Part shown: piece by piece, positions 3,202-60,090 of the stretch
Numbering within the stretch: position 1 is the first letter of the stretch
Layout of the letters: each line of letters begins with the position of its first letter
NCBI GenBank assembly: GCA_964187785.1
Contig: OZ076412.1
Location: 12,462,001 to 12,526,000 of the forward strand
Reading direction: 5' to 3'
Length of the DNA: 64,000 bases
Source: Amphiscolops sp. MND2022
Lineage: Eukaryota
Program-made: the position numbers and the translations under genes
The notes under the pieces: generated by a model
The model's input: only the letters and a program-made list of their open reading frames with translations
The model's database searches: none
Told to the model about the DNA's origin: nothing

Positions 3202-3203
3202 AT

Positions 3204-3850: not shown

Positions 3851-3956
3851 TACAGAATTATGGTACAACATCTATTAGACATCTAAAACAACCAAAATAC
3901 AATACAAAAATTCCTTTGACACAATTTTTTAATATAGTACATAATCTCCTTTGTTA

Positions 3957-4076: not shown

Positions 4077-4154
4077 TATTCTAAATTAACATTTTTCACT
4101 AGATAAAACTAACAATAATAATTTAAATAACTCCTATTTCACTCTTATTTTCTT

Positions 4155-4391
4155 ATGATACACGCTATAATACTTCCTATTTTTGGCCTACTTGGAATAT
4201 TTTACACAATCTGTACTCTACTTTCACTTACGTCTAACAAATTTTTACTCATACTTCTAACTATTATTACTTTTTTTTTACAAATCACATTCATAGATAT
4301 AATACTTCCATATCCTATCAATTTCACTACAAAACACAATTTCACCCAATATTTATTTCCTTTAGTGAACAATTTCTACTATGATTCATAA
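4155..4391 (+). CDS. Small hydrophobic leader ORF (78 aa) in element B
   Basis: ATG start, two TM-like stretches; ends 13 nt before the gag ATG. Confidence 0.4.
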   Translation: MIHAIILPIFGLLGIFYTICTLLSLTSNKFLLILLTIITFFLQITFIDIILPYPINFTTKHNFTQYLFPLVNNFYYDS

Positions 4392-4403
4392 TAAAATTAC
4401 ATA

Positions 4404-7400: not shown

Positions 7401-7429
7401 CTACTGACCCAATCAACTTTGAAATACAC
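4404..7429 (+). pseudogene. gag: gag of element B (~1000 codons; one frameshift near 4682 and several stops)
   Basis: One frame runs from 4682 with few stops; most is ATG-less and so missed by the track. It holds a long S/T/P/Q-rich region, a capsid-like segment (FIQCSLTGTALS*YIRL), the zinc knuckle CSYCHRTNHFISAC (6851-6892) and an RS-rich tract (7037-7370). Confidence 0.85.
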
Positions 7430-16487: not shown

Positions 16488-16672
16488 CAAAATTTCAATC
16501 AATCCTCTAAATATCTCTCTCTCTGAAAAACTTTACATATTTCAACAATTGAATCGAAAATCGAAATTAACCTAAATAATCGTGTCAACATTTCCACTCC
16601 AAAAACTTCTGATAAAGCCAAACGTTAGTGTTTTCTTTTCATATTGTACTCTCCAAAAATCTCTTCAATAAT

Positions 16673-18139: not shown

Positions 18140-18463
18140 ACATTTTCATTCCAAGCTACAGGTAACATCCCTAATTTATTTTTCATGCATTTTTGCCTAC
18201 ATTTGTAGCACAAAAACTCATTCATCTATTGTACTCTTCTTCTCTTCTAGCACTTTTTCAGAATCTCTTTTCAACTATAATACAAAAACAACCTCCATAT
18301 TATAGCACCAAATTATGTAGCAAAAACTTTTGGCATTTGGTCTTCAAATCTCAGAATCCTTTTGTTTTAGAAACTTCTATTCTTCTTCCTCCTTCTGGAC
18401 TCCTTTCAGTCTCTGCCAATTCCAGAAAATTCTATCAAGACTTCACTTTTCATTCTTCATCCA

Positions 18464-18862
18464 ATGGCTCCGCAAAAGTCTGAAATAAAACAACTCGTTA
18501 CTTCAACTGAATCTAAAGTCCATAGCCTAAAAGCTGCCATTTTTAATACTATGGCTTACAAAATGTCTCTGAAAATAAATAAAGGAAACGTCACTCTCCC
18601 TACTCGTCGTTCCCTTCTTAAGGTTCTCTACAATATCTGCCAGATCAAGAAAAAGCAGATCACCTTTGAACAGTATTATCGAGTTCATGTTAATGGACCA
18701 AAAATCGCCATTTGTGAAATTACTTCTGACACTGTGTTCGTCCTCAACTCCGCGTTTACTACGAAGGACAACTATTTTCAAGTAGCATGGGATGACGCTA
18801 TTGACGCCTTCAATGCCGTACTCTTAGACTTTGGGTACACAATTGCAACGCTACAATCCTGA
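18464..18862 (+). CDS. ORF-Z: intact 132-aa accessory ORF of element B
   Basis: ATG in good context (CCAATGG), globular-protein-like composition, no disruptions. No family recognised. Confidence 0.6.
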   Translation: MAPQKSEIKQLVTSTESKVHSLKAAIFNTMAYKMSLKINKGNVTLPTRRSLLKVLYNICQIKKKQITFEQYYRVHVNGPKIAICEITSDTVFVLNSAFTTKDNYFQVAWDDAIDAFNAVLLDFGYTIATLQS

Positions 18863-19013
18863 GACCCAACAAGTCCACCCTCCGTCAAAACACCCATTTT
18901 GGCCAAAAAATTACACTTCTGATAATTCCAACTAACCTATTCTCTTCACTTCTCATCACTCTGATGCTGTTGCTTTCTTCTTCCATGGCTTCATAGATGT
19001 CATCATTGTCAAC

Positions 19014-19202
19014 ATGCATCTCTCACTTCCTGCTTCTCAACCTCTCCACATCGCCACTTTTTCTCTTGTGTCGCTGCTACTCTTCTTCGCTGTCTCTCCA
19101 GACATCGTCACTTCGTGGTCCTCTCTGCTTCTTCGTCAGATGACTACACCACTTCACCTTACTTCAAACTTCAAACTCTTCCGAAACTTCATCACTGTAT
19201 AA
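19014..19202 (+). CDS. Small hydrophobic ORF (62 aa) near the 3' end of element B
   Basis: ATG start; hydrophobic stretch IATFSLVSLLLFFAV. Confidence 0.3.
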   Translation: MHLSLPASQPLHIATFSLVSLLLFFAVSPDIVTSWSSLLLRQMTTPLHLTSNFKLFRNFITV

Positions 19203-20040
19203 TCTTAATCAATAATCTTATTTTATCACTGTCTAATCTCAATCTATAATCTCAAAACTACTTATATTCAAAATATCCCCTGTTAATACTCTATTAACCA
19301 AATGTAAGCAATGTATACTCTATAATAATTCTTATTATTTTAGTCAAAATTAACCTACGATACCTAATTTAGTGCTTAATTCATCAAAACCCTATATTCG
19401 TTGTTGCTATATAATCATCTAATACCAACACTTTTTGCAAAATACGAAAATTCACCATATATTACATATTATTTTACTGGATATGTTTTTGTCCTTCTTC
19501 CTCTTTCAAAGTACAAGACCTATTCTTATAGAACAAATGTTTTACTTTAGGAATTTGAACTGAAAATTTGAAGTTTGAATCTTTTTTCAATCATCCAATC
19601 TTTCTTTTCTTTCGAATGAAAAATGAACTCAAACTTTGCCACTTCTAGACTTCTTCACACTTTGTTCACAACCCGCCAATGTTTGTTCATACCTCATTGA
19701 CAACTTCAAAAATTGTTCTTCAACGCCAAAAGTTTTCATTTGAATGCTCACTTGAAGAACACTCACATATTTTTTTAAACAAAGCCGATGGAGCATATCA
19801 AATGAACCATAACAGAGGTTGTCAATCAATAACTCGAATTCCAAATGTCAAAATCTAATATTGACAGAATGTTGCACCAATGTGAACCGTCATATGACTA
19901 AGAAGTTCTAACCGTCCTAGGTTGTTCTCACTCCTTGAGTATGGTACTAGAATATAACATGAAACATTGAACACCTTTAGTACAAAACCCAAACCTTCAA
20001 AACATATGGATATATTTTAATTTTTCAAAACCCGGTCGAT

Positions 20041-20467
20041 TGTGACGTCATGATGCATGACATCAAGAATCTTAAATTTGTTAAAGTATAAATAGACTTC
20101 GTGACTTAATAGCATGACAGATGTCACTCTACTCAGAAGTTAATACCTCATTATCGAGATGCTGATATTTCATTATAAATGTAATCTCTTGTACTTCAGC
20201 CTATAATTATTTGAAGTCTATTTAATCTCATTATTGATGGATGTACTAACTAAATCTATATATTCAGAGTAACTTGAATGTTGTAATCAACCAGTACTCT
20301 CATCTTCGAAGAGAAAGAATTCTGAGATCTCAGTCTGAATAGTCCTACTCAGTTCATTGAAATAAGTATAGCTAGCTAGACGGTATTCTGTTAAGCCTTA
20401 GTAAGAACTTCTTATGTATTCACTAGATGAAATAAAGTCAAACATCCAACAAGTCTTTAACAGCTCA
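20041..20467 (+). repeat. 3' LTR of element B
   Basis: Copy of 2775-3201, followed by TSD CATA. Confidence 0.97.
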
Positions 20468-38789: not shown

Positions 38790-38860
38790 AGCGCAAGTCA
38801 GCTTATAAAGCTTATAAAATCTGTCACTTCGTTGGTCCTTGAAAAAGAAAAGTCACTGCT

Positions 38861-40135
38861 TGTCATACCGGATGGTATGAAATACAACAACTGAAAGATG
38901 AAGTCATCACCAATTGCTCAAACATTTCAACTATAAACATTTTAAAATACATGTAAAATTCATATAACGGACGACTGTACCGTTCAGTCGTCACTCCAAT
39001 TTCACCTGTGCTACGAATTACAAAATTGTGCTAAGCAACGACCAATACTAATAGTCGTCCCAACCACAAACCAAAACAGTTAAAACAGAAATCTCCAGTG
39101 CATTTTGATCTCATCCTTTGTAAAATACAGAAATATGTTCCCCTCACCTGATTCACAGTAACGACTGAAACATGTAGTCGACTTTAGCAACCCTTTAGTG
39201 CAATACAATATTCATTCATGTAAACGACTGGCACATATAGTCGTATTTTAACCGATATGTACATGCAGTTCTTCATATCCAAATCATTGATAGTCCAGTT
39301 ACTAGAGCATCGTTTAGTTCATTTACCGTCATTTGAGTTAATCTTTAGTAACAATTACCTTCGAACACTAGTCGTCATTTGTGCTTAGTGCGTTAAAATT
39401 GCTAATTGGGAAAATACTACCAGTAATCAAGTGCAGTAATTATGCCCAACACTTCGATCACTAGTTGTAAATTAGTACGTGCTGTGATGTTGTGGGATCA
39501 ATGATACATGCTGGTGCGGCAACAGAAACTTAAACGCTACAATGGCATTTAGCGACGACCGAAGTGACCAGTCGTGTAATGTACCATGAGGTGATAATAG
39601 CAGGTTAACCAAAAAAGTTGAGTGAAAGAGACGCAAACAATCGAGTGCAATTAACAAGTAATTAAGAGTTTGAAGGTGCTATTGCATTATGGAAATTCAG
39701 ACAGAAGAAAATTGTTACCGTGAGATACAGACGTACTGTTAAAGCACTTTGCAAAGTTCACTACATTAAAATCACTTCTTTCATTTCAAACTACTTAAAC
39801 TTTACCCTTTTCAACAATGGTAAATACTCGATCGGGATACAATAGAGAGAACAGAATTGAGCAGTCTGGAAAAGATAGATATTTTGATGAGGACAACAAT
39901 ATGAGTGTCGCGGACCACTACACTGAAGACAATTTCAACAATGATATCGAAAGTGACGTGAGATCTATGGAAACGGATCATGAGAAACACAGGATTGAAC
40001 AACGTTTCCTAGAAATGAACCGTCAAATCGGAGAACTCACAAGTATAGTGAGAGCCCTTACTGATAAACTAGCTAACAGTAGGGAAGAGAACGGTAGAGA
40101 CGCACTAAATTCAGAGACGTCAACACATTCTGACA
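38861..40135 (+). repeat. 5' LTR of element C (1275 bp)
   Basis: Matches 52678-53959 with ~55-60 differences by eye (~95%). Confidence 0.97.
38971..39575. promoter_or_regulatory. Array of ACGACY-N9-AGTCGW palindromic sites in the LTR
   Basis: Sites at 38971, 39038, 39161, 39224, 39555 and a half-deleted one at 39355. All six are intact in the 3' LTR (52788, 52855, 52978, 53041, 53180, 53380). The spacer is always 9 nt. Function is inferred. Confidence 0.7.
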
Positions 40136-41362
40136 TGATGGTGACAGGAGTCTCGGCAAACCCACTGTCTACACCCAATGCTCAACCACCAAGAAGGACC
40201 CCCATTCACTACACGATGAACAAATGGGAGACGTCATGTCAGAAATACAGCACCTCAGAGCAACCATGACTGTTGGAGTGATCCAGCCAAAACTCCTCCA
40301 AACACAGGTCCCCCTCTTCCGTGGGAACCGAGAAAAGTATAATGAATTCGAACATCTACTCAAAAACAACCTCCGTCCCCACATGCATAAACTGACGGAA
40401 GACAAAAATTAAAATACTTCCAAAGCCCCCTCAGGGACGATGCCATCGACTTCTGGCAAACCCTGAAGAGTACGACCGAAACGACGCTTACCGAGATTCT
40501 CCAGGCATTTAACAAAGAGTATGCCAAAGGAGACCTCAAGGAAGTATCGAAGTACAAATTCGATCAAATGAGATACGACCCAACAACGGAGTCGTTTGCT
40601 GACTTCCTTACAAAATTCAAAAAATTAGCAAAAAAAGCGTACGAAGACAAAGCCAACGAAATAGCTGAAACATTCCTGTTCGCCAAACTACCCATCCAAA
40701 TACAAAATGAGTTGGCAATGGCAGGAAAACACGAAGCAACCAGTGAAGAGATCAAGACTCTTGTCCAAAGACGCTGCCAATACGCACAACTGCTACCTAG
40801 CACATCAGGGATGCAAATGTTGAACAATCTCCAGAATTACCCCGTAAAACAGCAAGCCAACCAACAAACAGCTACTACCAATAACCCGGGGAAATCAACT
40901 ACAAACAAAGAGGTCAAACGAAAATTTGAAATCAACTGTCGATATTGCAACATTGTCGGTCACAAATGGATTGACTGCCGAGAACGTCTCAGGGACGAAG
41001 CCAACGGAATTAACACCAAAACCTACCGACGCTCCAACCAGACAACAACAACCAACAGCCCCAGACCGACAAACCTAGATACAACTCAAAGCTCGTGTGC
41101 CAAATCTGTGGAAAAGTTGGGCACTCTGCACGAAACTGCAGAAATCGAGTCCCAGGCGCCTCAGCGTACCAGAATGTACCAGAAACAGTCTACGACGGAG
41201 AACCGAGAGTTCCACCGGGACTTCCGACAATCCCAAAATACCCGACAACCACCATACCAGGTATCACAAGTGACAAGTGAGCCCACCCAAACCGAAGGTC
41301 ACAACGACTGCTATGACGAGGAGTACAACGAGGAATTCAACCCGCATTCAAAAAACTTGTAA
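39817..41362 (+). pseudogene. gag: gag of element C, starting inside the 5' LTR
   Basis: ATG 39817 lies in the LTR and the frame reads through the LTR end and PBS. Capsid-like part (FRGNREKYNEFEHLL, ESFADFLTKFKKLA) and two CCHC knuckles (CRYCNIVGHKWIDC, CQICGKVGHSARNC). Frameshifts present. Confidence 0.9.
40139..40151 (+). promoter_or_regulatory. Primer-binding site of element C (tRNA-Leu-like)
   Basis: TGGTGACAGGAGT is one mismatch from TGGTGTCAGGAGT, the complement of the tRNA-Leu 3' end; it starts 4 nt after the LTR end. Confidence 0.75.
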
Positions 41363-41625
41363 AGCTACGTGATCCCCAATGCAACCAGACTACCAGTGCG
41401 CGCAAACAATCACAGACTAACTATTACTACGACTCAATGACTCAGACGTCAGAATGTCGGCAGCTTTCTGACAACCGGACTCAACTGTCTAAGAAATACT
41501 ACGTACACAAAGTTTCCACTAACAACTACCACATACTCCCACCAGTCGGTGATGACCCCACGTGTACATTTAAGGAGTGTACTGCAAGAGAGTCAACAAC
41601 CCACAAAACGCTCACCTAGACGAAA

Positions 41626-44600
41626 GTGAGAAACCAGAGACACCCACCCCAGCCGAAGTCGCCTAACCGCCCTAAACCAACAACTGTCAGGCCCCTCAGT
41701 GCGACATTACAACTAGATAAGCAAAATAAAATGCTCTATGTCCCCCTACAATTCAGAGCATATGAAAACCAAGGACTACTAGACACCGGAACAATCCAAA
41801 GTGCAATGTCAGAAAACGAACTACGCCGGATACTGCAAGCCCACCCGGCCGCCCAACTTGAAGAATACCCAGCCCCGGACCTCAAAGTCCAAATTGCCAA
41901 TGGAAGTATCGTCCCGGTACGGAAGCAAGTCCTCCTCCGATTTTTTATTGGTGGGAAAGTGTTCGAGGATGCATTCATGATATTACCGACAATGGGAAAT
42001 ATATTGATCAGAATGTCCTTCTTCAAAAAAGACTCTGTGACTCTGGACCTCGCAAACAACACTGTCAGATTCCCAGAGATCACCCTCCAACTGAAGCCAC
42101 AGAACGGGAACTTCAAATTACAAATGTTGGAACTCAGGGCATCACAGAAGACGACCATCTCACCCTGACAGCAAGTCTTTGCCGAAAAAGACATTGGTAA
42201 TGTAACAGGCACAGTGGAAGCGTTCCCGGCATTCGGACGTAAGACGGAAATACTGGTGTCTCCATCGATGTCCGAAATAAACAAGCAGCAGAGCCATGTC
42301 CAAATCACCAACTATTTGGACCACGCAATAACGATTCCCCAACACACAACAGTCGCAGTCTTCCGCATCTTGACCCCAAACCAAGCGAAGAACGTCCAAC
42401 CAATGACAAATGAACAACTGACCCTTTTTCCAAATTTCCAGATGAAGCAAACAATGTGATCAATCAGTTGTTCCAGGAGCCCGGTGCAACCAAAGACAAG
42501 CGATGGTACCCAACCCCCGAAACATGCGACGACCCCAATAAACTGAATAAAGTCGAGCGCCGAATATATGATGAAATCATTGAACTCCGGGAAGCCGAAA
42601 AGCTCGATCCCACCTTGTGACGATGACCAACGACAGACGTTCCTGAAGAATTTCAGCTGGGATGACTCAATCCTCACTGAGCAAGAGCAACAGAAGATCG
42701 AAGCACTGTTGGTCAATTACCACATGATTTTTGAACGCCACCGCCTCGACATAGGCATTAACATTGATATCAAGATCAAGCTTACGCCCAAACACGACGA
42801 CCCAGTGTACGCGCAGAGCCTACCGACTCCGACCAACATGAGAGATGATCTCCTTGTCGAATTGGCCCTGATGCAAGAATACGGAATCATCACTACACTC
42901 CCGTACAGCAAATATTCTTCCCCGATATTTGCACAACGGAAGCCCAATGGAAAACTTCGAATACTAGTCGACTTGAGACGCATCAATCACTTTCTCAAGA
43001 ACGACTACAACCAACACAATCACCCGGTCAGAACAATACACATGGCTGGCAAGAAGTACTTCTGCAAGCTTGATTGTTCACAAGCTTACCACTGCCTTCA
43101 GATGGCCGATGAACAATCAATCCAACTTCTTGCATTTAACTTTGGCAGCAGAACCTTTGCATACCTTCGTCTTGCTCAAGGGTTGATCTTTGCCTGCATT
43201 CAACAGCACAATCCGAGAGTACCTTGATGTTCTAGTAAAATCAGACAAATGTGCACAATACGTTGACGACATTGGGGTCGCTGCAAACAACGTGGACGAA
43301 CTGGTTGCCATTATCAAAGCAGTTTTCCAGCAGATACAGAAAGCAGGCTTGAAACTTTCGATGTCAAAGTGCGCCTTCGGACAACCGAAGATCGAATTCC
43401 TGGGTCGAAGTATAACCACCAAAGGCATCGCACCCCTTGAAGACCGCATTGACGACTTCCTCAAAAAGATGAAACTGCCAACATCAGTCAAATCGTTCCA
43501 ACGGTAAATCGGATTTGTCCAGTTCTACAGACAATATATTCCGAAATTGGCAGAGAAGCTTGTCCCACTGTACAAACTACTGCAAAAAGATGTCAAGTTC
43601 GCACTGACGCAGGTACACAAGGAGGCGACTTTTGACATCAATGAAAATCTAGCACGAGCTGCGAAACTGTCACTCAGATTGCCATTGCCTGACAAACAAC
43701 TTGTCATCATGTGTGATGCCAGCGAACACGCAGCAGGGTATGTGCTGCTTATTGAAGACTTCACTGGAAGTAACGACGACAAGAAGAAGACGTATGCACC
43801 CGTTGCTTTTGGTTCCCAACGGTTCACTGAAGGCCACATGTCACTGACTATGTATGCTAAAGCAATTTTAGCCATGCATTTCGCCTTCGACGAGTTCGAT
43901 CACATACTATGGGGAGTCAAGAAACCCACCATCGTGATGACAGACAACAAAGCGCTAACCCGCTTTTTTTCCAATCAAAGCGGATGCCACCAAAACTGTG
44001 GAATCCATTGCGATCAAGCCCTGCAGTTCGACTTAAACCCACGTACCAGGAGTTGAAAACCCAGCCGCTGACTACCTGTCCAGGCTCGACATTACCCCGG
44101 AGACAGGATCCATCTGAAACTTAACGACCAGATCCGTGTCCACTACATCGAGATTGACCTAGTAGCAAAAACTCCGAAACAAGACGACGATGAAGAGGAC
44201 TACGATCCCGATCAACCGCAACACCCTACAACAGCTGACCCCCTGGAACAGAACCAACTTAACGCACCCAACACCCACGATGCCTTCAATCAAATGCAAT
44301 GCTTACTGCATTCCCTCGCGAACTCCCAACACCAGCATGACGACGACCGTGCCAAGGTGATCCAGATCATCAGTCGTCACCTCGAGCCAGTCCTAGCAGG
44401 CGCAGCTGCCTCCATCATGCTGACGAAGTTTACCAGAAGACCGCACCCCAACACGGTAAACCAGGTATGCCCGCAAGGGGATTCACAAATAGTCCAGGAA
44501 CAACTAAGTAACCAAGACGTCCGAAAAAAGGTTCGAGTCTTAGTTAACAACGAACCTCTTCCTAACCACGTAATTTTTGCTAGTTCTTCTTTCCAAAAAC

Positions 44601-46065
44601 TCGTAAAAAACAGAAAACGCATTGAAGTAGTCAACAAGGTTTGGACAGGAATTTTTTTGATAACACTGGTAGAGTTCTATTTAAACAAAATGTAGTACCT
44701 CCAGAAACTACGATGCCCATAATCAGGACGATGCATGGCGACCCCATGCAGGGTCACCCTGGGGCATCTAAAATGCTGGTAGAACTCCGCAAGCGTTATT
44801 ACATACCTAATTTTAGTGAACACGTTTCAAAATTCGTTAGTAATTGTACGGACTGTCTAAAAGCTAAACCCGTTAACCCAAAACGCCTAACTCCACCTCT
44901 AGAGAAGATCTATGACCACTGCAATGGTCCTGAAGACATACTCGAGGTTGATCTGGTACTAATGAGAACTGCCGGGATTCAAATCGAACAAGCAACGGTA
45001 AAGCATGCACAGACCATAGGGATGGTTGAGTGTTCCCATCAGAGGCTAAAGCAGATACTGAAAATCAACGTCGCAACTGACTCTCCCCAATGGGACAAGT
45101 ACAAGTACATTAACCTCGCAGTAATGGCCCATAACACAACCTACCACCAAGCACTTAGATGTACCCCGAGCGAAGTGTTTTATGGTAGAGTCCCGTTTAA
45201 CGCACTGGAACTTAAGTTCAGCAACCCCCTGCAATGTCGAACACAAGAAACCGACTTAACAAAATTGATCGACCAAGTGATCGAGAAATATGAACAAGTC
45301 AACAACAACATACTTCAAGCCGACCACAAGTACAAAAGGTACTACGACCGTAAACCTCAGGCATCAACTCTGAAAGTTAATGACATTGTGTTCCTTCTCA
45401 ACCCGAAAACCACTGACCAGTCAGACAAAATGGCCATCAATAACTTCAAATGGGAAGGCCCTTTCAAAGTAGTCAAAGTGTTAACTAATTTCAACTACAT
45501 AATCAGGAAAGTCGGTACTTTTCGCACACAATGCGTCCACAGGATGCGACTACGTCCTTTCATCCCGAACGCACCTATACAAGACATTGACGAAGATCCA
45601 ATTCTCTTCTTTGCTGACCCTGAAGCGTCTGACGATCAAGAGCTCGTCAACGACCACTTACCTCGGACAATCCACTTTGAACGAAAGCCCGCACTAGCAG
45701 CTCCTGAAGAGCTCGATACCGAACATGGTATCATATACTACGAACGTGTCCAAAGGTAAACGGACCGACAACTGGCACAGCCTATCCCTGAAAACTCTCC
45801 TCAAAACTTAATGCCACCAACTGACGACTCCAACGTCAGTGATGACTTCAAAGACGAATATAGTGCCGAACCCGACGAAACTGCAACTAACTATAATGAA
45901 CTGCCAAACACCAACGACGAAGCACAGGTAACGTCCCGCAATAGCAGTACCCGTTACAATCTACCGGCTCAACCTGCACCGAGGACTTACCGAGACTTCC
46001 TTGTTCATGAACTTCAAGTAAAACCCGTCTTACAAAATTTTCTGCAAAACAACAAAACCAACTAA
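41626..46065 (+). pseudogene. pol: pol of element C: protease, RT, RNase H, integrase (frameshifted; integrase core partly deleted)
   Basis: GLLDTGT; SSPIFAQRKPNGKLRILVDLRRIN; YVDD (43259); CDASEHAAGY; HGDPMQGH..CTDC; KWEGPFKV; C-terminal RYNL motif. Confidence 0.95.
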
Positions 46066-47446
46066 AAGTAAATGAAACACTCCAAGTAAATGTCTGACAT
46101 TTACAGTTAAAAAAAAACGTGTACCAAACATACTTCACACAACAAAAAATAGTTTTCCCCTTTAGTTTATTCAAAACTGTACCCCTCAATAACGACTGCC
46201 AACAGCAGTCATGAACAATATCTATCTAGACAACGAAGGTAATTGTTCTGCATTTACACCACACCATAACAGTTCTCATCCAGTAATACCAACACTTCCA
46301 AAATGAAATAACAAACAAATCAATTGAAGCGACTAAACGACCATTGCCTACCGTCGACGCTATTTCAGCCGACGCTAATCATCCCAACAAACACGGTACG
46401 GAAATACATGTAACGCGTAAATTAACGAGAGATAATTTATTCAATTCACACCAAAATTGCCACAGCCACTATAGAAGCGAATTGCTTCGAATGAAAAACC
46501 ATCACAACAAATCTAGCAAAACGTGAACGCAAATACCGTTCCCAAATAGAGAAAGGAACTAACAGTGACGTGGCGATCTGCTGCCTGACAAACGTTATAG
46601 CAACACAATCAAGCCCTCACCAATTTCACTCTACACTAATAGCGCTGGCTTTGTGGGTGCGTCGTTAAAAAGCGTGCTTGTGTGGTTGGTCGTCACAATA
46701 CAGATGAAAGTTGCTCTATAGCAACTGGATTCAGTGTTAGTTTTGTATGGGTGGTTGCGTCGGCAATTCACCTTCCCAATGAACCGAACCTCAAAAATAG
46801 AAACCAAGCAATAAACCATGCCAACGGTCGTCACTTCACTCCCGAAAATTAAGATACATGTGAACAAAAGTTAATTCGCTGCTACTTTATGCATTTCACG
46901 TAAAACTCTCAGCAAACTGCAATTTGAAGAAATTGTCCTACAATTTCACTACCTAGCAAAATTAACAACACACACACCGATACTAAATGCAATCTACTAC
47001 CATCTTTGTCCTACCTCACAAAGGAAATCCAAAACAAAGAACAGAGTAAAAACTTCAATTTCAAACGCCTTATAGCGTCATCAAAATAAACAATAGCAGC
47101 ACATACAAGTTGTATCAAATTCATGTAACAAAAACTCATGTAACAATTCGCTCAAACTCCAGATGCATAATACAATGAACGCATGTAAGTAAAAGACCAA
47201 AGAACGCAACAAGCGAAATCAAACGTTCCTTACTGGGACTAACAACGAGTTTCAGCCAGAAACAAATATGAAAAAAAATGAAAGGATGACGTCAACGCCA
47301 AGAGCAATACGGCACCAATCAGTATCACAACGAATACAAACGGTTGATTCACAAAATTGTAAACAATTCAGTTTCAACTAGTTTTGTCTAAGTGTAAGTT
47401 TCACGAACTAGCTAATACCCCTCCGATGATTCATCCATCAGAACGT

Positions 47447-50400
47447 TCACCAACTTTCGTTTCGCGGCCTTCTTGGTGTTTCTCTTCGAGAGGGCTCTGC
47501 ATTAGCCGTCCTTTTTCCATTCCCACCACGTGAACTGGAAGGTAAACTATCATCCTTCTGTGACCGAGGCTGTTTTCCACGCGCAACATGACGAATTAGA
47601 GGCTCATCATCAGCAACAGAGAAAGTAACGGGAGACCCACGCGACGCAGCATTACGGGATCGGCTCTTCAGCTGTGCTTGTGCGTCGTCAACACTCTTCC
47701 TCAATTGCGCGCACACCGCTGACCTATAGTCGTCGACTGAAATGCCCGCCGATTCCACAGTCCCTTCGTGAAACACACGATAACATCGCGACAACACCTC
47801 CTCACCTCTCTCAGGATCCATCAGCCGGGACACCTGTATATCAGTAGTCCCGCAGTAACGGAGAAATCCAGTCGTCAGTTTCCTTGCACCGCCGACTACG
47901 CCCGCACTTGTCCAACTGCGCACTAAGTTCATGCTCTATAGCAATTGCCCTTGACATAGAGCAGTCACTTCGACATCCAGAAAATCAGTTACCTACTGAC
48001 TTCGAGCAGAACAACAAATGACAATTTTGAAAACATCCAGTGAATCCGCACAACGCGACCAAAAGGGGTAAGACCGCCACAAGCTAATGACATCATCAAC
48101 CATAGGACCAGTAGATGACTGACTACGCCAACGGTGCAAAAAGTACTTGTAGACTTAATCATACTGTTGGACAACATTAGCACCCTGAACGTCACTGAGG
48201 AAACCTAGACGAGTTAGTAACAAACAACAGTCCATTAGGGAATCCACAACTCGATCTTTTGAACGTCTGTAAATAGCCTCGGGAGCAAATGCAGAGAGGC
48301 TAAGTCTTCCTTCAAAATCCGAATGATAATCAGCTACGAGATTTTCGCATATCTTGGCCATGAACAATTGGATCTCTCGATAGAACACGCGCCGCTGGTC
48401 GAGGACGTTGAAGCGAAAGTACTGAACAAACAAAGCCTTGTATCGCTCCTGTGGAACAACACTGAGCTCGATCAGCTTGGTACTGAAAAGACGATCGTGA
48501 TCAAACGCTGCAGGGACCTTGTCTGCATCTTGGACCATACATTTCAGCCGTCGAAGGAATGTCACAAACTCAACTTCAAAACATAAGTCGCGGTCACGAC
48601 TGTTCGTACACCCTCGAGGAAAAGACGTCACACTAGTACAAGCAATAAAACCATCATAATGATGGCCTAATTCAAATTAGTTCCCCACCCTTAACCAAAT
48701 GATAAAAAGAGAGGTCAAAACCAACATTCTCGGCCAATGAACTTTTTCCTTTGAACAAACAACCACTACACAAAAAAAAGAGAAATACATCACAACCAAA
48801 CGTTCATACTTGCCTTCATCCAATAACCATCTTAGCATAGCCATCTGTGGTCGAGCCAACCGGTCATTAAAAATGACAACATTCAGACTGGGGATTGATC
48901 ACAGCTCCATCATAGCCCCACCGCCCTCATTGCCAAAGTAGACAGCCAGATCGTTCCAACGTTCAACGAGCTCTCCACACACAGCAGCCAACTGCGGTAA
49001 CGTCAACTCTTCGCTTCGCACGTACTGTAAAAAGAATATGATTATCCACATTTAACCTGCGGGGTGTAACATTGGGACGCCCTAACATTTTAGTCCTACT
49101 CCTATCATCACTGTTTTTGTTTCGAAACAAACTAGACAAAACTCATACAAGTTGCACACCGCGTACCCAAAACCTTATGTCATAATGAAGTACCTGTCGC
49201 AACAAGGGCATTCTGTCGAAAACTGAACCATACTCTACACTCGACAGTCGGTACTTGAGGAATTCAAGCACGTTGTAAGGGTCCAGACCACCAATACGTT
49301 GACAAAACTGCTGCCGGATGCTCCGCTGTAGCAACTGTACGTCATTAAAACGCATCACAACTGACTTGCCAGCAGGTATAAAATGGGCCAACGACCGTCC
49401 GACAGCGACAAGGGTGTCCACCACAACACTACAAAAGTTCGGCAACGGATCCAAACACAACAGCACTGTGACAGTTAACCCAATCACCTCCTCCTTCCAA
49501 CGGTCACACACAGGCCAGGTAACCAGAGTAACGATTTTCAATTCGGCTTCGTCTACGAAATGACAGTCGACCCGCCAGAAATTGCCATCGAAGTACACTC
49601 AGAGACCCACTCGACTCCCAGAATGTACGAGTCCACATATCTTTTCCATGACGTACGGGTACACCCCATACAATAACAAACTCTAAACAAACAAAACAAT
49701 ACAAATCTCCCAAAAATTAACATACCCAAAACCGCGTAAAATAAGTCTAGTACATGTAACATGCAAACTAAATAACATAACGATCCCCCCCCCGGTAAAA
49801 ACAACCAAAATGAAAAACTTACATGGAATACAACGGTACCTGACATTTCGCAACAGTAAGGCTCCGGGCCACAAAGTTCAGTTCCCCTCTCAAGCTGCTA
49901 GCCTACCCATCCATTAAACGCATCAGTGACTCGAAACCAGCAACCGATCCAAAGCAGTTCAGGAAGAAACACAAACACAAGTACGAGGCACCGTCCTCTG
50001 ACAGAACTGGCCGAGAGTTTTCTTCTTCAGCTTCACGCTCCAATGCAACACGTTCCTCTAAGGACAAACTGATAGGGGACTCCAAATACACTGGAGGTTC
50101 AACCATGTGTTCCAGTCGTATCCTCCTATCTTCTTCAACAGAAACGGGCCGACACGATTTATCCAGTAACGGACGTTGGGTCATTATACGGAACTTTTGC
50201 TCTAATCGTGTATGCTCCGACCCTTCCAATGACCCCATAAGTTCCGCAAGCCACGACCCGCAATTCTGAGGTCCACCCGACACATTAAACAGCGCGCGAA
50301 ACCATCGAGCACACGCTTATGCCGTGGGAACCCGACAAATAGGCCCACAACATTTGAAACGAAATAAGACGGTTTCCAAGTATTGAGCCTCCTCTTCCTC

Positions 50401-51703
50401 ACTAAAACAACATCCTAAATCTTTTAAAAAATCTGTAAACTCTAACACCATGAAAATTCAAGCTAGTGCCTATGTTCCCCCTCCAAAACTATACACGCCT
50501 AGAAACAGCCTTGATGCTTAATTCGGTCCCAAAAGTTAGTATAATATTAAATGTGATCTTGAAAGTCTTTACCAGGTTTCGTAATTGCGGATGTCCCGAC
50601 AGCAGGCTCGTCAACCGCTGTCACAGATGCAGGCCCTCCAAACACAGTTGGCACATAGGATCCAGTTCCAGAACCCCCGCACCCCGGAGTCGTACCTTGA
50701 CTATCCACCTCCACGGACGGCAGATCAATCGAAGGCATTGCCCCACGAGTCGTCATATCAGCACGTTGCTTCACAAAGATTTCTTGAGAAGCGGCTTTGA
50801 AAGTGTGCCAGAACTCATCGACACGGAGTGCCCCGAAATTTCCAAGTTCTCCCAAAGCGGACTCCAGAATTGCTTTCGTTAACTGGTTCACGCAGTTTTC
50901 CAGTCGGGTCTCCACTCGTTCCAACTGATCCTCCAACGACAGAACAGCACAGTCATCTGCCCCTAGCAAAATCAAACAATACTGATTCTGGCAAATTGAT
51001 TAGTTCCCTCCCCAACTGATCCTACCCATTCCCAACGACGAACGGAGCCACACCAGGACAGTTCCATGATACTATAAGACTACAGATGCGATAAACCCGA
51101 AGTTCCGATGCAACACTAACCCAATTGCGCGTCCATCAGCTGGTGCACTCGCTCACCCACACCTTCTGGAGGCGCCACGACCGCTTGACGATCTCTCCGC
51201 GGGAAAGCCCGTATGTGGTCGAGTCACGCCGGAACATGTACGTCACCTACGAATGAGGCAAAAGATGGAATCACTATCTCATCATGAGGCACTCCTGTAT
51301 AGCCTAACGCTAAAGTGAGCTAACATTGTCAAATTAATGCACAACAGAACGGACTTTTGCACAGCACTGCTAAAATACACCTCCGAAGAATACAAAAAAG
51401 GTAGAAAAAGACTCGAGCAAAACAAAGATGGCGAGACAAGACATAGTGCTCGCAACGAGAATATGCTGACACGTGACGACCAAACAATAATGAAGAGTAC
51501 TCACGGAATTCATCTGATAGAGCAAGTTCTAATAACTCGTTCATGCTCCCGAGTGACGACGACGTAACTCGCCCAGCGAATTGACAACACGGCAAGTCCA
51601 AATGTTCAGCCTCAGCGGCCAACGCTCCTTCTGAAAGTGCTTCAATGCATGAAGCCATCTCCTCTAATTCCTGATAACTCTGCTCAGCAACTGACACTAA
51701 CGA
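47447..51703 (-). pseudogene. Spliced antisense accessory gene of element C; BED-type zinc finger plus hAT-transposase-like body (~1146 codons, 6 exons; 5' end unresolved)
   Basis: Exons 51703-51505, 51294-51121, 50962-50573, 50401-49840, 49682-49149 and 49024-47447. Five GT-AG introns each keep the frame. This copy has 8 internal stops and 1 frameshift. Motif C-x2-C..H-x4-H at 50291-50212. The spliced gene is well supported; the hAT assignment is by-eye (~0.6). Confidence 0.8.
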
Positions 51704-52666
51704 CTATAAATCAAGATCGAAGGATGAACCGCCCAGATCGGACATACGATTGTACAAAAGGACGATTTCCAAACAAGAAGAATAACGACTCAATAATTCA
51801 ACGCTGGTGAAACCGAACATGTGGCCTGATCAACTACATTTTCCTTAAATTGCCAACACTATTTATTACTCAAAAGTTACTGTCATGTGTGATATGTGTG
51901 GTACTGAAAGAAAAAATCACCCCAATGAGAAATTTCAACAGAGTATAATAACCTCCGATCACTGCAGTCGTTTTTTCTACTTATGTTCTTTACTATCTCC
52001 CAAAGCCCTTCGGACCGGAATATATTCGACCTCAGCCTCAAAGAGACAAAAGTGATGAGCGGGAACAATCAATAGCCAATAATCACGAGAGTAATAAAAC
52101 AGCAATATGAAACGCGAGAATAATGACTTGTGAATAACACCGCTGATACTAAATATTATGCAATGCACTACCAACTGCAGCAGTTATGAATAGTTTACAC
52201 AAGCACGAGTAGCGGAAATGGAAAACAGAATAAACGACTCACTGCATCAAACGTGTAACACTCCCGAGCACACGCAGACTGCCGCAGTCGTTGTTCTCTG
52301 ACTATTTACCTAACACGACAGATCCCTCTTACCAGCGCACGACCGGATGACGTGGCATACTGATTTCCACTCCGAAATTATTACTTCCACTCCACGACAC
52401 TATGATGCAAGTGACGTCATAGCTCAACTTTGCTTACGCCTATCCGACAGTAAACCAATAACTGTTTCCAACTCACGATGACTATTATTACCAGTCGTCA
52501 TATGATTTAAGACTTCCACCACACGCGTGACAGCTGCCTATACTCGTGAGCCGTAAACCACCCACTGAAAAAGGCGACCAACCCCTTTAGTCGCCCCTTA
52601 CAATAACCACAAATACTTGCCACACCCGCATTCACTCCGACTTCCTGCCCACTTTCTTCTTTTTCT

Positions 52667-52677
52667 AAGAGGCGGAG
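52667..52677 (+). promoter_or_regulatory. Polypurine tract of element C
   Basis: AAGAGGCGGAG lies immediately before the 3' LTR. Confidence 0.75.
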
Positions 52678-53959
52678 TGTCATACCGGATGGTATGAAAT
52701 ACAACAACTGAAAGATGAAGTCATCAACAATTGCCCAAACATTTCAACTATAAACATTTTAAAATACATGTAAAATTCATATAACGGACGACTGTACCGT
52801 TCAGTCGTCACCCCAATTTCACCTGTGCTACGAATTACAAAACTGTGCTAAGCAACGACCAATACTATAAGTCGTCCCAACCACAAACCAAAACAGTTTA
52901 AAAAGAAATATCCTGTGCATTTTGATCTCATCCTTTGTAAAATACAGAAATATGTTCCCCTCACCTGATTCACAGTAACGACTAAAACATGTAGTCGACT
53001 TTAGCAACCCTTTAGTGCAATATAATATTCATTCATGTAAACGACTGGCATATCTAGTCGTATTTTAACCGATATGTACATGCAGTCCTTCATATCCAAA
53101 TCATTGCTGGTCCGGTTACTACAGCATCGTTTAGTTCATATAGTCATTTGAGTTACTCTTTAGTAGAAAATTACCAACAACGACTTCGAACACTAGTCGT
53201 CATTTGTGCTTAGTGAATAAAAATTGCTAATTGGGAAAATACTACGAGTAATCAGTTGCAGTAATTATGCCCAACATTTCGATCACTAGTTGTAAATTAG
53301 TACGTGCTGTGATGTTGTGAGATCAATGATACATGCTGGTGCGGCAACAGAAACTTAAAAGCTACAATGGCAATTAGCGACGACCGAAGTGACCAGTCGT
53401 GTAATGTACCATCAGGTGATCATAGCAGGTTAACCAAAAAAGTTGAGTGAAAGAGACGCAAATAATAAAGTGCAATTAACCAGTAATTAAGAGTTTGAAG
53501 GTGCTATTGCAATATAGAAATTCAGACAGAAGAAAATTGTTACCGTGAGATACAGACGTACTGTTAAAGCACTTTGCAAAGTTCACTACATTAAAATCAC
53601 TTCTTTCAATTAAAACTACCTAAACTTTACCCCTTTCAACAATGGTAAATACTCGATCGGGCCACAATAGAGAGAACAGAATTGAGCAGTCTGGAAAAGA
53701 TAGATACTTTGATGAGGACGACAAAATGAGTGTGGCGGACCACTACACTGAAGACAATTTCAACAATGATATCGAAAGTGGCGTGAGATCTATGGAACCG
53801 GATCATGAGAAACACAGATTGAGCAACGTTTCCTAGAAATGAACCGTCAAATCGGAGAACTCACAAGTATAGTGAGAGCCCTTACTGATAAACTAGCTAA
53901 CAGTAGGGAAGAGAACGGTAGAGACGCACTAAATTCAGAGACGTCAACACGTTCTGACA
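52678..53959 (+). repeat. 3' LTR of element C (1282 bp), including a frameshifted copy of the gag N-terminus (53642-53959)
   Basis: Copy of 38861-40135, followed by TSD CTGCT. Confidence 0.97.
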
Positions 53960-56040
53960 CTGCTATAGTCTGCGTTTTCTACGAAGAGCACCGACTAAAA
54001 ACCAGTTTGATATTCTCTGGAAAGCCCCGAGAGAACTGAAAAAAAAATGCAAACAAACTTTTTAATTACGACAGTTTTTTGAAGCTTGTGTACATTTTTC
54101 GGATGTTTCCGTGGGTAAGATGTTCCACAAAGCTCATCAACGAAACAATTGGCGACTCCACAATTTTTTTAAAGTGAAACAAATAATGACTCAAATAAGT
54201 CAAAAGTACCAATTTTTGTTTTTTTTCGAACGTTTTATGCCCTCTCTGAATTTTATTTAAAATTTCGTGAGTATGGAGATTTACACAGACAAAGCAAACA
54301 AGAGTAGTTAGCTATTTTTCATACTTTTTTGGAGAAATTTTGAGTTTTTACAAGAACTGTACATAAAATTTACTCCTTTGGAATGTGATGGTGTAGTGAT
54401 TAGAGCACAAAGCATGTTTTGTTGTATCATGTGCGACATTCCCAATACTAATTATTGCTGAGCCTTAGTTGACAAACTTTCAACTCTGGCTTGATGACAC
54501 CGGCATGACAAAAAAGCGCTTTCAGAGAGAACGAATCTGAAAAGTGAAAGGAGCAGCAGGCGTTTGTGACCTTGAACAAGTCATTCAAAAAAGTTTTCCC
54601 TCTAAACGTTTGATTGCTTCATGTATTTGGTCTACACTTTTTGGATACTTGGATAATTTTGTGGGCAAAGGTACCCACGGAGTTAAACAACAAAACAGAT
54701 AGATACTCAGGATCCTTGTGTATGGAAATTAATCTTCTGGCTTCCAAAAATGGAAAAAAATGAACGACGAAAAGTATATTTTTCTGAAATTTTTTGAACT
54801 TCTCTGCATATTCGTAGTTTGAAATAGCCCTAAGGAAAATGTAGTCACTAAGCAGATTCGGGTTTCAAAATATTCTTCTGCTCAGTGAGCGTATCGGTTT
54901 TGGTCGGCGCGTTTTGTAAGAAATGAATTGAAGCACTGTAGCAATGGCTTTTCAAGAACAGCGAACTGACAGATTTCTATGAGAATTTATTTAAATGGTA
55001 ACTTCTAACTGCCACTTGGCCTAAAGGTTAAACCGGATTTTCTGAGGTCTGTAAACAGGAGCACGTGTGTTCAAGTCCTGCACTAAACCATACTCCTTTA
55101 TGCTTGCGAAAGTAGAGAGGAAACCAAAGGATCTACTTAAGGGATGTTTCGGCACTATACGACATTTCTTCTGACGTTTTTCCAACGGAAGTGCCTCCCT
55201 TGATTTGTAGCGGTGACAGAGCGTTTTGCGAGCATAGAAAACCACCTTAGGATTTTGAAGCAACAAACGGAAAAAATTCAAAATTTCAAAAAAAAATATT
55301 GCAATATTTTTCATAATCTTTTCAGGCAAGTTTTTTAGAGACCCAAGGGTGGCCTTTTTGATTATCTTTTGGTCCTGTAGAACTGATGAGAGTTTTCTCA
55401 ATAATTATGAAAATACTTCAGTTTTTTCGTCACTGAGCGACTTTTATTTGGAATTTTTTTATTCTGTCAAAGGGTATCCCACTTCACTTTCATAAGTGTT
55501 CTCGGCATAGAAAACCGTTTTGCGAGTTTAAAGCTCCTTTTTCGGCACTATGAAACTTTTTCTGGGTAAAAAAGATTTCGGTAAAAATTGTTTCGAAACA
55601 TTGTTTTTTTATGTTTTCAGAAGGAAGGTTTTCCATCGGGAATTTCCTGGCACTATAAATTTGATGACATTTTCGCAACAGTTCCCTTTGCTTCGAAAAA
55701 TCGTTTTTTAACCTTATAATAATAATAATAATTGAATTTATCCTGGCATATTTAAACAACAAAATACTTTTTTTTCTACTCACATGTAGAAAATGACAAA
55801 TATTTGTACAAAATTGCCAAGGAAGGGGCATCAAGTAAGCTATTAGAAAGCTTTTTGTAAAGATGCCCGAAAGAAAAAAAGTAGTGAAAAGTTAGAGGCA
55901 TTTCCAAGAGACTGGATAAGACTGTTTATTTTTTTTACATATAATTTTTCCTTTTAATTTTATTTCTCATCAGATATCGTATCAGCACAAATCATCCTCG
56001 CAAGTCCTTATGTGGAGGACCATGCAGTGTGAGAGACTCT

Positions 56041-58880
56041 TCAATATTTATTATAGAAAATACTTATCAGTTCATCATTTCCAAAAATGTAAAGATCTGC
56101 AATTTGGTGGTAGAACTTTTTATATTGCTTTTCATCCATTTCGCATATGTTTTTATCAGGAGGCAATACTCCCCATTTGCGTAATGCATTCGTTAATATT
56201 ATTGCACGATAATCAAGAAGATCATTTTTTTCAGCAAAATTCCATATATTGAGATTTTGGTTCCTCGTTTGTCTATTCTGTATCCCAATATTGAGAATTT
56301 TGAATCCATTTCTGATCTGATCAAGTGAAAATTTGAATAATTCATAGAGGTGATGTTCGAATACTGTTCCAATCCTGAATTCCTTGAATTTTTCTATGAC
56401 ACTGGCCCATGGAGGAAGCCGTAGAACTATCCGGATTAATTTTTTCTGAAGCAATAGAATTTTTTGTAGCTTAGATTTAGGTCCTAACCCATAGAGAAGT
56501 GCACCATATTGAACAACTGGTGATACATATGATCTAATATACTGTATTAGTTGTCTTTTATTCAAAGTTTCCCTTAATTTATAAAGTATGCCACTATGTC
56601 GCGCAAGTTTTTGGATGACCTTGGTAATGTGTACTTCAAAATTGTTTTTTTCAAAAAAGATTCCTAAATATTTATAACTCTCAATAGAGGATATTTCATT
56701 GTCCCCAATTTTTATGTTCGAGTACTTCACAGATCTTTTCTCAAAAACGACAAATTTTGTTTTTTTTTCAGAATTACAGGCAACTCTGTTTTCCGACATC
56801 CAATTTTGCAAAAGATTTTTATCATCAGAGTTAGAGTTTAATTCCTCTATCATAGCTGTATCATCAGCGTAAAGTATGAGGTCGCCCTGCCAATTTGGGT
56901 CGGTACCAAGATCATTTATATAAACAAGAAACAACAGAGGTCCCAATATTGATCCCTGTGGTACTCCACGTATTATAGGTTTAATCGTAGAGCATTTATC
57001 CTCAATTTTCACAAACTGATACCTATCTGTCAAATAATGTTCTAAGAGTTTATGGGATATGCCCCTGATACCGATATGGTATAACTTTTGTAATAAAATT
57101 TTGTGGTCAACTGAGTCAAACGCTTTTTTGAAATCAACAAAAATACAGTTTGTTTTCACTTTGGATTTCCAATTACTTTGAATTTTTTTCCATAACATCG
57201 TTGCTGCTTGTAAGCAATCTTTCTTTTTTCTAAAACCGTATTGATTTTCTGATAGTATTGAAAATTTTTCTAGATAATTCATGAGTCTTTTATGAATTAC
57301 TTTCTCAAATATCTTTGATAGATTTCCCAAGATCGAAATCGGTCTATAGTTGGATGTTATATTTTTTCTCCATCTTTAAAAATTGGAACAACTTTAGCAA
57401 TTTTCATACTTTTAGGAAAAACGCCTTCGGATATACATTTATTAAAAGCTGTTTTTAAATAGGGAGTGATAATTTGAGCCGCTGCTTTCAATATTCTCAC
57501 GTTCACGCCATCTAATCCAACCGATTTTTTGTTTTTTAATTTGGCAATAAAATTATAAACTTCTTCATTAGTAACTGGAAAGAAGTACATAGATTGCGAC
57601 TGATATCCTTGTTGACTTGTCCATTTACTGGACATCGGTGCATTAATTTCTGGATCACAAGCAGTTATGAAATAATCATTGAATTGATCAACAGTCAATT
57701 CACTGGATTTTTTCACCTGAGTTTCTACTCCTCTCGATCTTTTTATATACTTGAAGAGTTCTTTTGGATTATTCCGATCAACTTTGCTTTGAACGTCATT
57801 CCGTTTAGCAGCTCTTATTTCCTTGTTAACTTCATTCCGCTTCACTTTGTATCTATGGAAGACCTCCGGTGATTTTGTTCTGATCCATAAGTGGTAGATT
57901 TTATCTCTGATAACTATATGCCTTTTGATACGGTTTGTTATCCAAGATTTATTGGGATCACGTCGTTTTATTCGTTTAAGTGGGAAGTATTTCTCTGTTG
58001 CCTCTTTCAGGGTTTTTGTAATATTATCGAGATATGTTTCTGCTTTTGCATCTGATTCGGGAATTTTACCCAGAGAATCACTGAGAAAAAATAGAAACTT
58101 TTCACAATAAAGTGGATCGTCTAGCTTTTTTAAAGATCTAAATTCAAAAATCTCTTCTACTACTTCATAGTAAATATCTAAATCTAATTTAAGACTATAG
58201 TGATCAGAGAACGTGGTTTTTTCTATCTGGGATCTTTGAACAGTGATGTTACTGTATATAGAGTCAATACATGTACCAGATGTAGCTGTTTCTCGTGTAG
58301 GTTCTCTCAAACTCACCAAGTCAAGACCTTGTGAATACATTAAATACTCTAATGATACTCGTGTAGCTAGATTTTCGTTTAACATATCAATATTGAAATC
58401 TCCACAGGCTATCTGTAACCCGCCACTGTTGATTTCAAGAACTTCTTCGACGTGATCTAAATACTTACTTTTGTTTCTGGAAGGTTCGCAATAAAAACAA
58501 GAAACTATGACTTTCTTTGTCTTTTTGAAGTCACTAACTTTCACTGAAATTGACTCATTGTATTCATCAGTGTGCAGGAGTTCTGCTTCCAAATCTAGCG
58601 TTACATAAATTGCTACACCGCCACCTCGTTTTTTAGTTCTAGTGCTGGCAAAAGGTCTGTGGTATCCTTCAAGACAATATAATTCTGCGTCACTTTCGCT
58701 CTTGAACCATGTTTCAGTGAGTGCAATGATTGAAGGCTTTCTTTCTGCTATCAAAATTTCTAAATTACCTAAGTTGGTTGATACCGATCTTATATTATTG
58801 TAGAAAAACGTAAATCCCTGCAACGTTCTATTTTTTGAGTTAGTGTTTAGTGATCTTATATATTTACAGTCTGTCTCCAA
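56041..58880 (-). pseudogene. LINE ORF2 (AP endonuclease + reverse transcriptase) with a single frameshift near 57355
   Basis: APE motifs YNNIRS, ALTETW, GDFNID, CIDSIY, SDHY. RT motifs FVDFKKAFDSVDH, GVPQGSILGPLLF, YADD. Adding one A in the run at ~57362 restores KDGEKNITSNYRPIS. Confidence 0.95.
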
Positions 58881-58961
58881 TGCCTCTTCGGAGTTGCTTG
58901 GGTTGCTAGTTTTTATAGTTTGAAATAAGCAACTCCGTCGCTGTTAATGCTTTCTAACATT

Positions 58962-59972
58962 TCACTTCTTTTGGCCATTTTCACTTTCGTTTAATCCAGT
59001 TACTTTCAGTGGGGGCGAACAACCGATTAAATTTTGAATAAAGTTTTCTAAGCCATCTGCATCAGAAGCCTGCTTGTACTCTTTCAGTTTATTTGTAATA
59101 TCCACGTTTGAGAGCATATTGGGTGAATCCATAGGAAGCGGTCTTTTAGCTCTTGGTTCGCGTGGAGTTTCAGTAGCGGCACTTTTTCTCACTATAGCCT
59201 TGCCACTTGCAAGAATTTCGTCTGCATCTGTTTCATCAACAATGAAATGAGACCTTGTATGCTGTCCGTCCTTCAGAAGCACCACTGGAGCACTGTTTTT
59301 CGAAGACACTTTGAGGCCCAATCCGGCTGCATAATCCGATAAGTCCCTGTCCCTCTTTGTCAGCCTCTCATGCATGAAAACAGGTTTATTGTTAACTGGG
59401 TTTCCGAAATTTCTGAGCCAATATTTCCTTGCCCATATCCTATCTTTTTTCCAAAAATGGACAAACTTGACTATTACAGGGGGTGGGAATTTGATATCCT
59501 TGACTTGTCCCAGAAAATGACATGCTACAAGGTCTTGTTCATTTACCTGAGTTTGGAAGACTCGTGAGAAAAAGTTGATAACATCAGCTACTAAGTTGTT
59601 TCCGGAGATAAGAGGTAAGTTTTGAATAATAATTGAGTCCTTGGATGTATAACGCTCAATTCGATTAACAGATGTCTCAAGATACGCAACTTTTTGTTCC
59701 AGGGTTTCAATAGTTTTGTCTTTTTCCTGTAGATTTTGAATCAATTTCGAAAGAAATTCTTGTAATTCAGGCTGTATTTTATTGCCAAGTTTATTCAGCT
59801 CTTGCACTAAGTCCGCCATGTTTATTTTCAGCTTTGAAATTTGGCCTTGAATGTGTTTCAACTGCAGCGACGAAAAGCACAACCGTTCAGCTTGACATCT
59901 GTCTCGAATAAATGCCCTATTCAAACTATTGAAAACTACGGTGGAATGAGGTAATCTACAAAGTTCGTTCAC
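58962..59972 (-). CDS. LINE ORF1 (coiled coil + RRM-like); probable start ATG 59819
   Basis: Coiled coil (IETLEQKVAYLE) followed by SIIIQNLP..VACHFL..PVIVKF, typical of L1/CR1-type ORF1. Confidence 0.85.
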   Translation of the reverse strand: MNELCRLPHSTVVFNSLNRAFIRDRCQAERLCFSSLQLKHIQGQISKLKINMADLVQELNKLGNKIQPELQEFLSKLIQNLQEKDKTIETLEQKVAYLETSVNRIERYTSKDSIIIQNLPLISGNNLVADVINFFSRVFQTQVNEQDLVACHFLGQVKDIKFPPPVIVKFVHFWKKDRIWARKYWLRNFGNPVNNKPVFMHERLTKRDRDLSDYAAGLGLKVSSKNSAPVVLLKDGQHTRSHFIVDETDADEILASGKAIVRKSAATETPREPRAKRPLPMDSPNMLSNVDITNKLKEYKQASDADGLENFIQNLIGCSPPLKVTGLNESENGQKK

Positions 59973-60090
59973 GCTTTTAACCTAAACATCATCGCACTCT
60001 TGACTTCTTTGTTATGAATACTTTGCCAGATAACAAGCAGAATTGCCGTAACATCAAATAGAATCGGTAATTTTTCCATTGACAGGTGAT

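Follow-up and report, generated by a model that had tools for sequence, protein, structure and literature searches.

Element C is a Ty3/Gypsy LTR retrotransposon that occupies positions 38861–53959 of the window, the 64-kb stretch of DNA that was analysed. It is flanked by two plus-strand copies of a CTGCT target-site duplication (38856–38860 and 53960–53964) and features LTRs of about 1.28 kb. The 5' LTR (38861–40135, plus strand) runs from TGTCA to TGACA, includes the start of gag, and is 94.8% identical to the 3' LTR (52678–53959, plus strand). Membership of the Gypsy group is indicated by the TG...CA LTR ends, the target-site duplication, a primer-binding site, a polypurine tract (52667–52677, plus strand), and Pfam matches in the order gag, RT, RNase H, and integrase. 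The primer-binding site, TGGTGACAGGAG (40139–40150, plus strand), is presumably tRNA-Leu-like. The gag-pol region (39817–46065, plus strand) encodes gag, protease, RT, RNase H, and integrase in Ty3/Gypsy order; the window copy is interrupted by stops and frame changes, and relatives of element C have full domain sets in Pfam. The gag frame starts within the LTR and crosses the LTR end and the primer-binding site (39817–40150), an arrangement also seen in the related clades A2 and B. The distance from pol to the 3' LTR is about 6.5 kb, and this interval contains minus-strand coding blocks that share 30–90% amino-acid identity with relatives.

Pattern matching in the 5' LTR identified strandless palindromic sites at 38971–38991 (site 1), 39038–39058 (site 2), 39161–39181 (site 3), 39224–39244 (site 4), and 39555–39575 (site 6). 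Site 5 (39355–39375, strandless) has lost its left half and keeps its right half at 39370–39375. The 3' LTR features all six sites intact, at 52788, 52855, 52978, 53041, 53180, and 53380. A seventh strandless site at 52478–52498 lies between the start of the antisense gene and the 3' LTR, and an eighth, GCGACC-N9-AGTCGC, is found at 52574–52594 (strandless); similar sites also precede the 3' LTR in relatives. The positions given for these palindromes in an earlier note (38971, 39038, 39161, 39224, 39555, and 52478) are exact. Its count of six sites in each LTR is correct for the 3' LTR, whereas in the 5' LTR five sites are intact and one is a half site (5.5), and its single site upstream of the 3' LTR becomes two with the eighth site, which it had overlooked. 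An additional strandless match at 40575–40595 within the gag coding sequence is likely a coding by-product, because the match recurs in an element without the array in its LTR.

At one mismatch or fewer, the window contains 33 strand-matches, compared with a shuffle mean of 0.99 and a largest shuffle value of 5. When CGAC-Nk-GTCG was scanned over k = 0–30, the count per LTR peaked only at k = 11, with 5 and 6 matches, and the LTRs held one match at k = 14 and none at any other spacing. The spacers and flanks of the six sites are unrelated (9–17 of 49 positions identical), so the sites are not recent tandem copies; this bears out the claims that the spacers are unrelated yet always 9 nt and that the palindromes are not by-products of tandem repeats. 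Between the two LTRs, 5 of 45 spacer bases and 0 of 60 half-site bases differ (p = 0.013). The claim that LTR differences spare the half-sites holds for these bases but not for the site-5 deletion, which does remove a half-site. Retention of CpG, also put forward as evidence, says little, since CpG depletion is slight throughout the window (observed/expected 0.86–0.92 also outside the elements).

A genome-wide search for ACGACY-N9-RGTCGT returned 1687 exact matches, against 319 for the reversed-pattern control. With an N10 spacer there are 121 matches, mostly from one repeat (control 225), a 14-fold excess of N9 over N10 that places the motif above background, as the earlier note had anticipated. 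The N8 spacer gives 941 matches (control 268). The N8 class was considered as an array of the sister lineage, clade B, and this was rejected: 18 of the 19 sites examined are followed by AACA and form the 3' terminus of the clade B LTR and not a variant array. Each clade B LTR has about one N8 site, which in the gag frame is translated as NDP..SRN. This LTR-end palindrome, ACGACY-N8-RGTCGT-AACA (L056:4093, L060:3109, L063:6917, and others), has a variable spacer and overlaps gag codons and the integrase end.

Twenty N9 loci were sampled by following the order of the earliest N9 matches on contig C1 and taking the stretches around them. Eighteen adjoin gag or LTR matches of the element C lineage and include families too diverged in their LTR DNA to align with element C; the 9-nt spacer is kept across these families, which upholds the invariance claimed for it. 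The remaining 2 were not matched to the lineage, and L035 and L042 gave no match among the LTRs compared. Constraint was assessed in an alignment of 25 LTR copies (30 loci, minus 8 same-place repeats and 1 partial copy, plus 4 divergent copies), in which the alignment around site 4 is imperfect for copies that carry a local duplication at this site. Nearest-neighbour pairs in this alignment differ at 64 of 1664 half-site positions and 82 of 1259 spacer positions (p = 0.0014), and the half-sites also differ less than other non-coding positions (1251 of 19349; p = 9e-6). The half-sites evolve more slowly than the spacers, as had been proposed, and their most variable position is position 2 (17 of 136). 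The spaced palindromes are a real, constrained feature of a Gypsy lineage, and these patterns support their reading as candidate binding sites for a dimeric protein. Some LTRs (L015, L018–L030) carry local duplications of about 90 bp that add copies of sites 3–4, and tandem LTR arrays are found at G000:C6:4699–4705 kb.

Control loci were picked by integrase from other LTR families (10 loci of about 6–7 families, 9 with a long direct repeat), and neither the antisense gene nor the arrays were found in any of the 10. The window itself contains a second LTR element at 2775–20467, with 427-bp LTRs that are 98% identical and Gypsy-type integrase domains; it has no antisense gene and its LTR has no spaced palindromes. 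This element features a Monjiviricetes-type viral fusion glycoprotein at 13688–15877 (E 2e-22). Elsewhere in the window, a LINE-like element with an endonuclease and a reverse transcriptase lies on the minus strand at 56041–59981. Loci L183–L184 and L191–L192 belong to a very abundant young LTR family with LTRs of 3.0–3.2 kb that are 99.8% identical and an open frame of 1610 aa.

The earlier note missed the likely binder of the palindromes, an antisense BED-finger gene inside element C. On the minus strand, this gene consists of a first conserved block (51467–51772), an upstream exon-like block (50532–50972), a BED-like zinc-finger exon with the helix GLRNLWGH (49828–50411), an RNase-H-like exon with predicted beta strands (49176–49682), a short conserved block (48749–49051), and a last exon-like block with a helical domain (47507–48631), which is in two frames in the window copy. 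The finger of the window copy has its first Cys at 50291 and its first His at 50231, and its exon shifts frame near 50220–50260. The coding blocks are interrupted by compositionally biased stretches that are probably introns; it is the frame structure that suggests that the gene is spliced and expressed. The gene is under purifying selection, with dN/dS of 0.034–0.099 in the 5 of 13 pairs for which it could be computed; in the other 8, pS is saturated (0.76–0.85) and pN is 0.08–0.31. Candidates number in the thousands at first look and the best 150 matches are mostly open frames, which indicates that the gene is widespread in young elements. Clade B elements have an additional sense-strand acidic ORF of 150–250 aa directly before the 3' LTR (L057:2725–3333, L058:4446–5192, L061:3948–4406, L062:5566–6300), which had no Pfam match in the two copies scanned.

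From domain searches and structural models, the antisense protein is predicted to be a hAT-type transposase with a BED-like zinc finger; statistically, the hAT assignment is weak. The zf-BED domain (PF02892) was matched with E 0.007–0.008, and in 7 of 35 members at E ≤ 0.1; the best score of 16.9 bits is below the curated cut-off of 20.6. The finger residues C38, C41, H58, and H64 (CxxC...H...H) are invariant or nearly so in 35 aligned rows. A model of the finger and the next exon, built from a database ORF that spans both and includes a read-through intron (pLDDT 50), has Hermes (8edg) as its top Foldseek match, with E 0.072 over 422 columns, and four Hermes entries (8edg, 8sjd, 4d1q, 2bw3) are among its top 25 matches. 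In the last-exon model of a relative (pLDDT 76), residues 1–224 align to Hermes 362–576; this alignment is weak (rmsd 4.4, 155 aligned, rank 43), with a Z of 4.9 that unrelated folds also reach. Neither match is strong by itself, and hAT ancestry is supported mainly by the agreement of two separately modelled parts, which both match Hermes in the right order. A wide structural search with the finger-plus-next-exon model gave helical-bundle matches only, driven by a long predicted helix, and Hermes was absent among the 50 rows listed. For the last-exon model, Foldseek and re-alignment returned nothing at E ≤ 0.001 or Z ≥ 5. The ESM Atlas gave no usable match, and under 0.9 only unrelated helical-repeat clusters. 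Pfam searches of 90 members matched no hAT families or hATC domain, the TRP28 domain (PF04195) had no Pfam match in the protein, and a PDB sequence search gave no significant match. Sequence searches returned unnamed relatives only, and none found a longer homologue at E ≤ 0.1, which is weak evidence. The protein is likely catalytically dead, because the strand part of the RNase-H-like exon shows no conserved acidic residue across 36 copies, with the position of the catalytic triad taken from hAT structures; acidic columns at ≥70% occur only at 128–150, in the helical tail. The gene sits inside an LTR element in the loci examined, and the reading of it as an active hAT transposase is not supported by the sequence.

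Base contacts in Hermes come from S66, N67, and R70, residues of the helix that ends just before the first His (PMC10368747). The equivalent positions of the antisense protein, counted by eye from the first His, differ among helix types, and 70 loci were classed by this helix (in 4 the helix could not be parsed, and 1 lacked a flank). Type A1, which features an xxNL helix and includes the window copy, has at least three GACY-N9-RGTC sites downstream in 15 of 19 loci. The 4 misses have 0–1 sites; in 3 of them the stretch does not include the gag part of the LTR, and the fourth is rearranged. One A1 locus (L110) has an LHRL helix instead of xxNL, yet keeps 5 A1 sites. Type A2, which features an LSSL helix, reaches three sites in 0 of 13 loci; four loci have 1–2 matches, located within gag-coding LTR ends or beyond, and none occurs in the 11 upstream regions parsed. 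An A2 element that was sampled solely for its gag-coding match likewise lacks the LTR sites. Three of four A2 LTR clusters are enriched in AYG-N15-CRT (p ≤ 0.007 each), which has the same 21-bp span as the A1 site and a different inner half-site; this motif is degenerate and was recognised only post hoc, and its count of 37 at k = 15 is accompanied by side peaks of 22 at k = 12 and 14 at k = 18.

Clade B, whose RT is about 45–72% identical to that of type A, has 13–22 CG-N9-CG matches in all 33 of its loci, whereas neighbouring spacings give 1.75–5.5; no locus has more than one A1 site. Its helices vary (VREI, AAEF, PAEF, AGEL, and others) and the CG-N9-CG core is common to all; the stricter ACG-N9-CGT is frequent in some subtypes and rare in others. 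All three motifs (A1, A2, and B) fit the same 21-bp frame around a 9-nt centre. A2 forms a single clade (support 1.0) within A1 in the tree of antisense proteins. In the RT tree, where decayed copies have long branches and resolution inside clade A is poor, A1 and A2 are not separated. There are only two independent motif switches, from A1 to A2 and between A and B. A decayed element at G000:C1:18.58–18.60 Mb (L049 and L111) has an RT about 52% identical to that of type A, an A-type antisense gene, and A1 sites, and its finger is too decayed to class.

Because the helix type tracks the LTR motif, a sequence-specific regulator is likely encoded by the element itself. Judged from the sequence, we consider it likely that the palindromes are binding sites for the element's own antisense-encoded hAT/BED protein, which is probably spliced and predicted to be dead. 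A promoter in or near the 3' LTR would drive antisense transcription of this BED-finger, transposase-derived protein. Two protomers would bind as a dimer, each with its BED helix on one 6-bp half-site and the two half-sites 9 bp apart. Transcription from the LTR would be controlled through the array that precedes the gag start, most likely with activation or de-silencing of the element's own lineage as the outcome. The pair of sites just ahead of the 3' LTR, beside the antisense start, would allow feedback of the gene on itself. Protein and sites would travel and diverge together, forming a private lock and key for each sub-lineage. The fuller version of this scheme is about an even bet: a large Gypsy lineage captured a hAT transposase, which became a spliced, antisense, dead, and private dimeric transcription factor or anti-silencer whose helix co-evolves with the array. 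The sites with their spacing and constraint, the antisense gene and the selection on it, and the agreement of helix type with motif type are observed; we infer splicing, expression, dimerisation, binding, and the regulatory effect with its sign.

The weak point of the co-variation is that it consists of two switches in linked sequence that share ancestry, so use of different host factors by each lineage could produce a similar pattern. The variation of clade B helices over a constant CG core and the LHRL locus that keeps A1 sites also weigh against it. In the host-factor reading, the sites are bound by a dimeric transcription factor or a repressor of the host, with each Gypsy sub-lineage tuned to a different host factor and the antisense gene doing something else. 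LTRs usually gather host-factor sites, clade B LTRs also contain TGACGTCA, which we take to be a CRE-like word, and two of the 20 sampled N9 loci could not be placed in the lineage. We regard a host factor as unlikely, since the three motifs share their frame and follow the element's own helix, and unrelated LTR families (the 10 control loci and the element at 2775–20467) lack the motif. The by-product explanation, in which the palindromes arose without function through tandem duplication or chance, can draw on the relatives that gain sites through local duplications. The lack of flank or spacer similarity among the six sites, the slower change of the half-sites, and the N9 excess have largely refuted it, and we give it almost no credence.

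Function as hairpins in RNA or single-stranded DNA, serving as packaging, dimerisation, or reverse-transcription signals, is very improbable. Four of the six sites give more stable folds than shuffled sequence (z −2.0 to −3.3), which is expected of any inverted repeat. Against hairpins, the stem sequence is fixed and does not covary, mismatches occur in the outer and inner pairs, every loop measures 9 nt although the positions are non-homologous, and each arm of the A2 and B versions offers only 2–3 complementary bases. The element's protein might instead bind the sites for a structural job and not for transcription, such as bridging of cDNA LTRs, nuclear entry, or guidance of integration. The sites are near both DNA ends, and hAT BED domains are described as binding subterminal repeats to assemble the transpososome (PMC10368747). 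This option seems rather improbable, since sites are also located upstream of the gag start and outside the LTR beside the antisense start (52478 and 52574), a promoter-like placement that is similar in clade B, and since the domesticated hAT proteins ZBED1/DREF are transcription factors that act on palindromes (PMC7471704).

If regulation by the element's own antisense protein is the correct reading, self-encoded, family-specific regulation of the VANC type would extend to LTR retrotransposons, and each sub-lineage would regulate only itself. A retroelement would have domesticated a DNA transposase, with one transposon class taming another. The candidate protein and the candidate target come as three natural matched pairs, which would form a small natural library of BED specificities and a code linking helix residues to half-site sequence. 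How LTR retrotransposons activate themselves and escape silencing, and what role antisense extra ORFs have, is stated to be an open question for Retand (PMC11963269).

No description of Gypsy LTR palindromes with an antisense BED gene was found in the open-access literature; Repbase and GyDB entries and supplements were outside this scope and could hold one. Extra genes captured by animal LTR elements, other than env, are known from bdelloid LTR retrotransposons (PMC5408684); the extra ORFs that its abstract names encode env, a GDSL esterase, or a DEDDy exonuclease, and none of these is a DNA-binding transposase remnant. Hermes (PMC10368747) resembles the predicted antisense protein in having a BED finger followed by RNase-H-like and helical parts, a recognition helix just before the first His, and two BED domains on a quasi-palindrome. 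It differs in that its finger is CCHC, its half-sites are close, and it is catalytically active, whereas the antisense finger is CCHH and sits in a retrotransposon. ZBED1/DREF (PMC7471704) are hAT-derived BED proteins that act on palindromic sites, as proposed for element C; however, they are host-domesticated single genes with unspaced palindromes of 8–10 bp, whereas element C exists in many copies and its half-sites are spaced.

Retand plant Gypsy elements of the Tat lineage feature antisense TRP28 ORFs (PMC11963269). As in element C, a long region between pol and the 3' LTR contains a conserved antisense ORF that is proposed to encode a DNA-binding regulator. The Retand ORF carries TRP28 (PF04195), which had no match in the element C gene, and has no known target site, whereas the element C gene has a candidate target, apparent introns, and a BED-like finger. 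The VANC proteins are anti-silencing proteins of the Arabidopsis VANDAL transposons (PMC5735166). As predicted for element C, they are sequence-specific proteins encoded by the transposable element, with multiple motifs in the non-coding parts of their own family, and motif and protein diverge together between families. VANDAL is, however, a DNA transposon, whereas element C is an LTR retrotransposon with a BED/hAT-like protein, and the VANC motifs are same-orientation tandem repeats, in contrast to dispersed inverted pairs with a fixed spacer. A VANC-like system would be expected to cause methylation loss and de-repression; the parallel drawn for element C is the helix-motif co-variation. On these comparisons, element C resembles VANC/VANDAL and ZBED1/DREF in its proposed mode of action and Retand in the position of its antisense ORF but appears to belong to none of them, because it has no TRP28, is not a DNA transposon, and is not a host gene.
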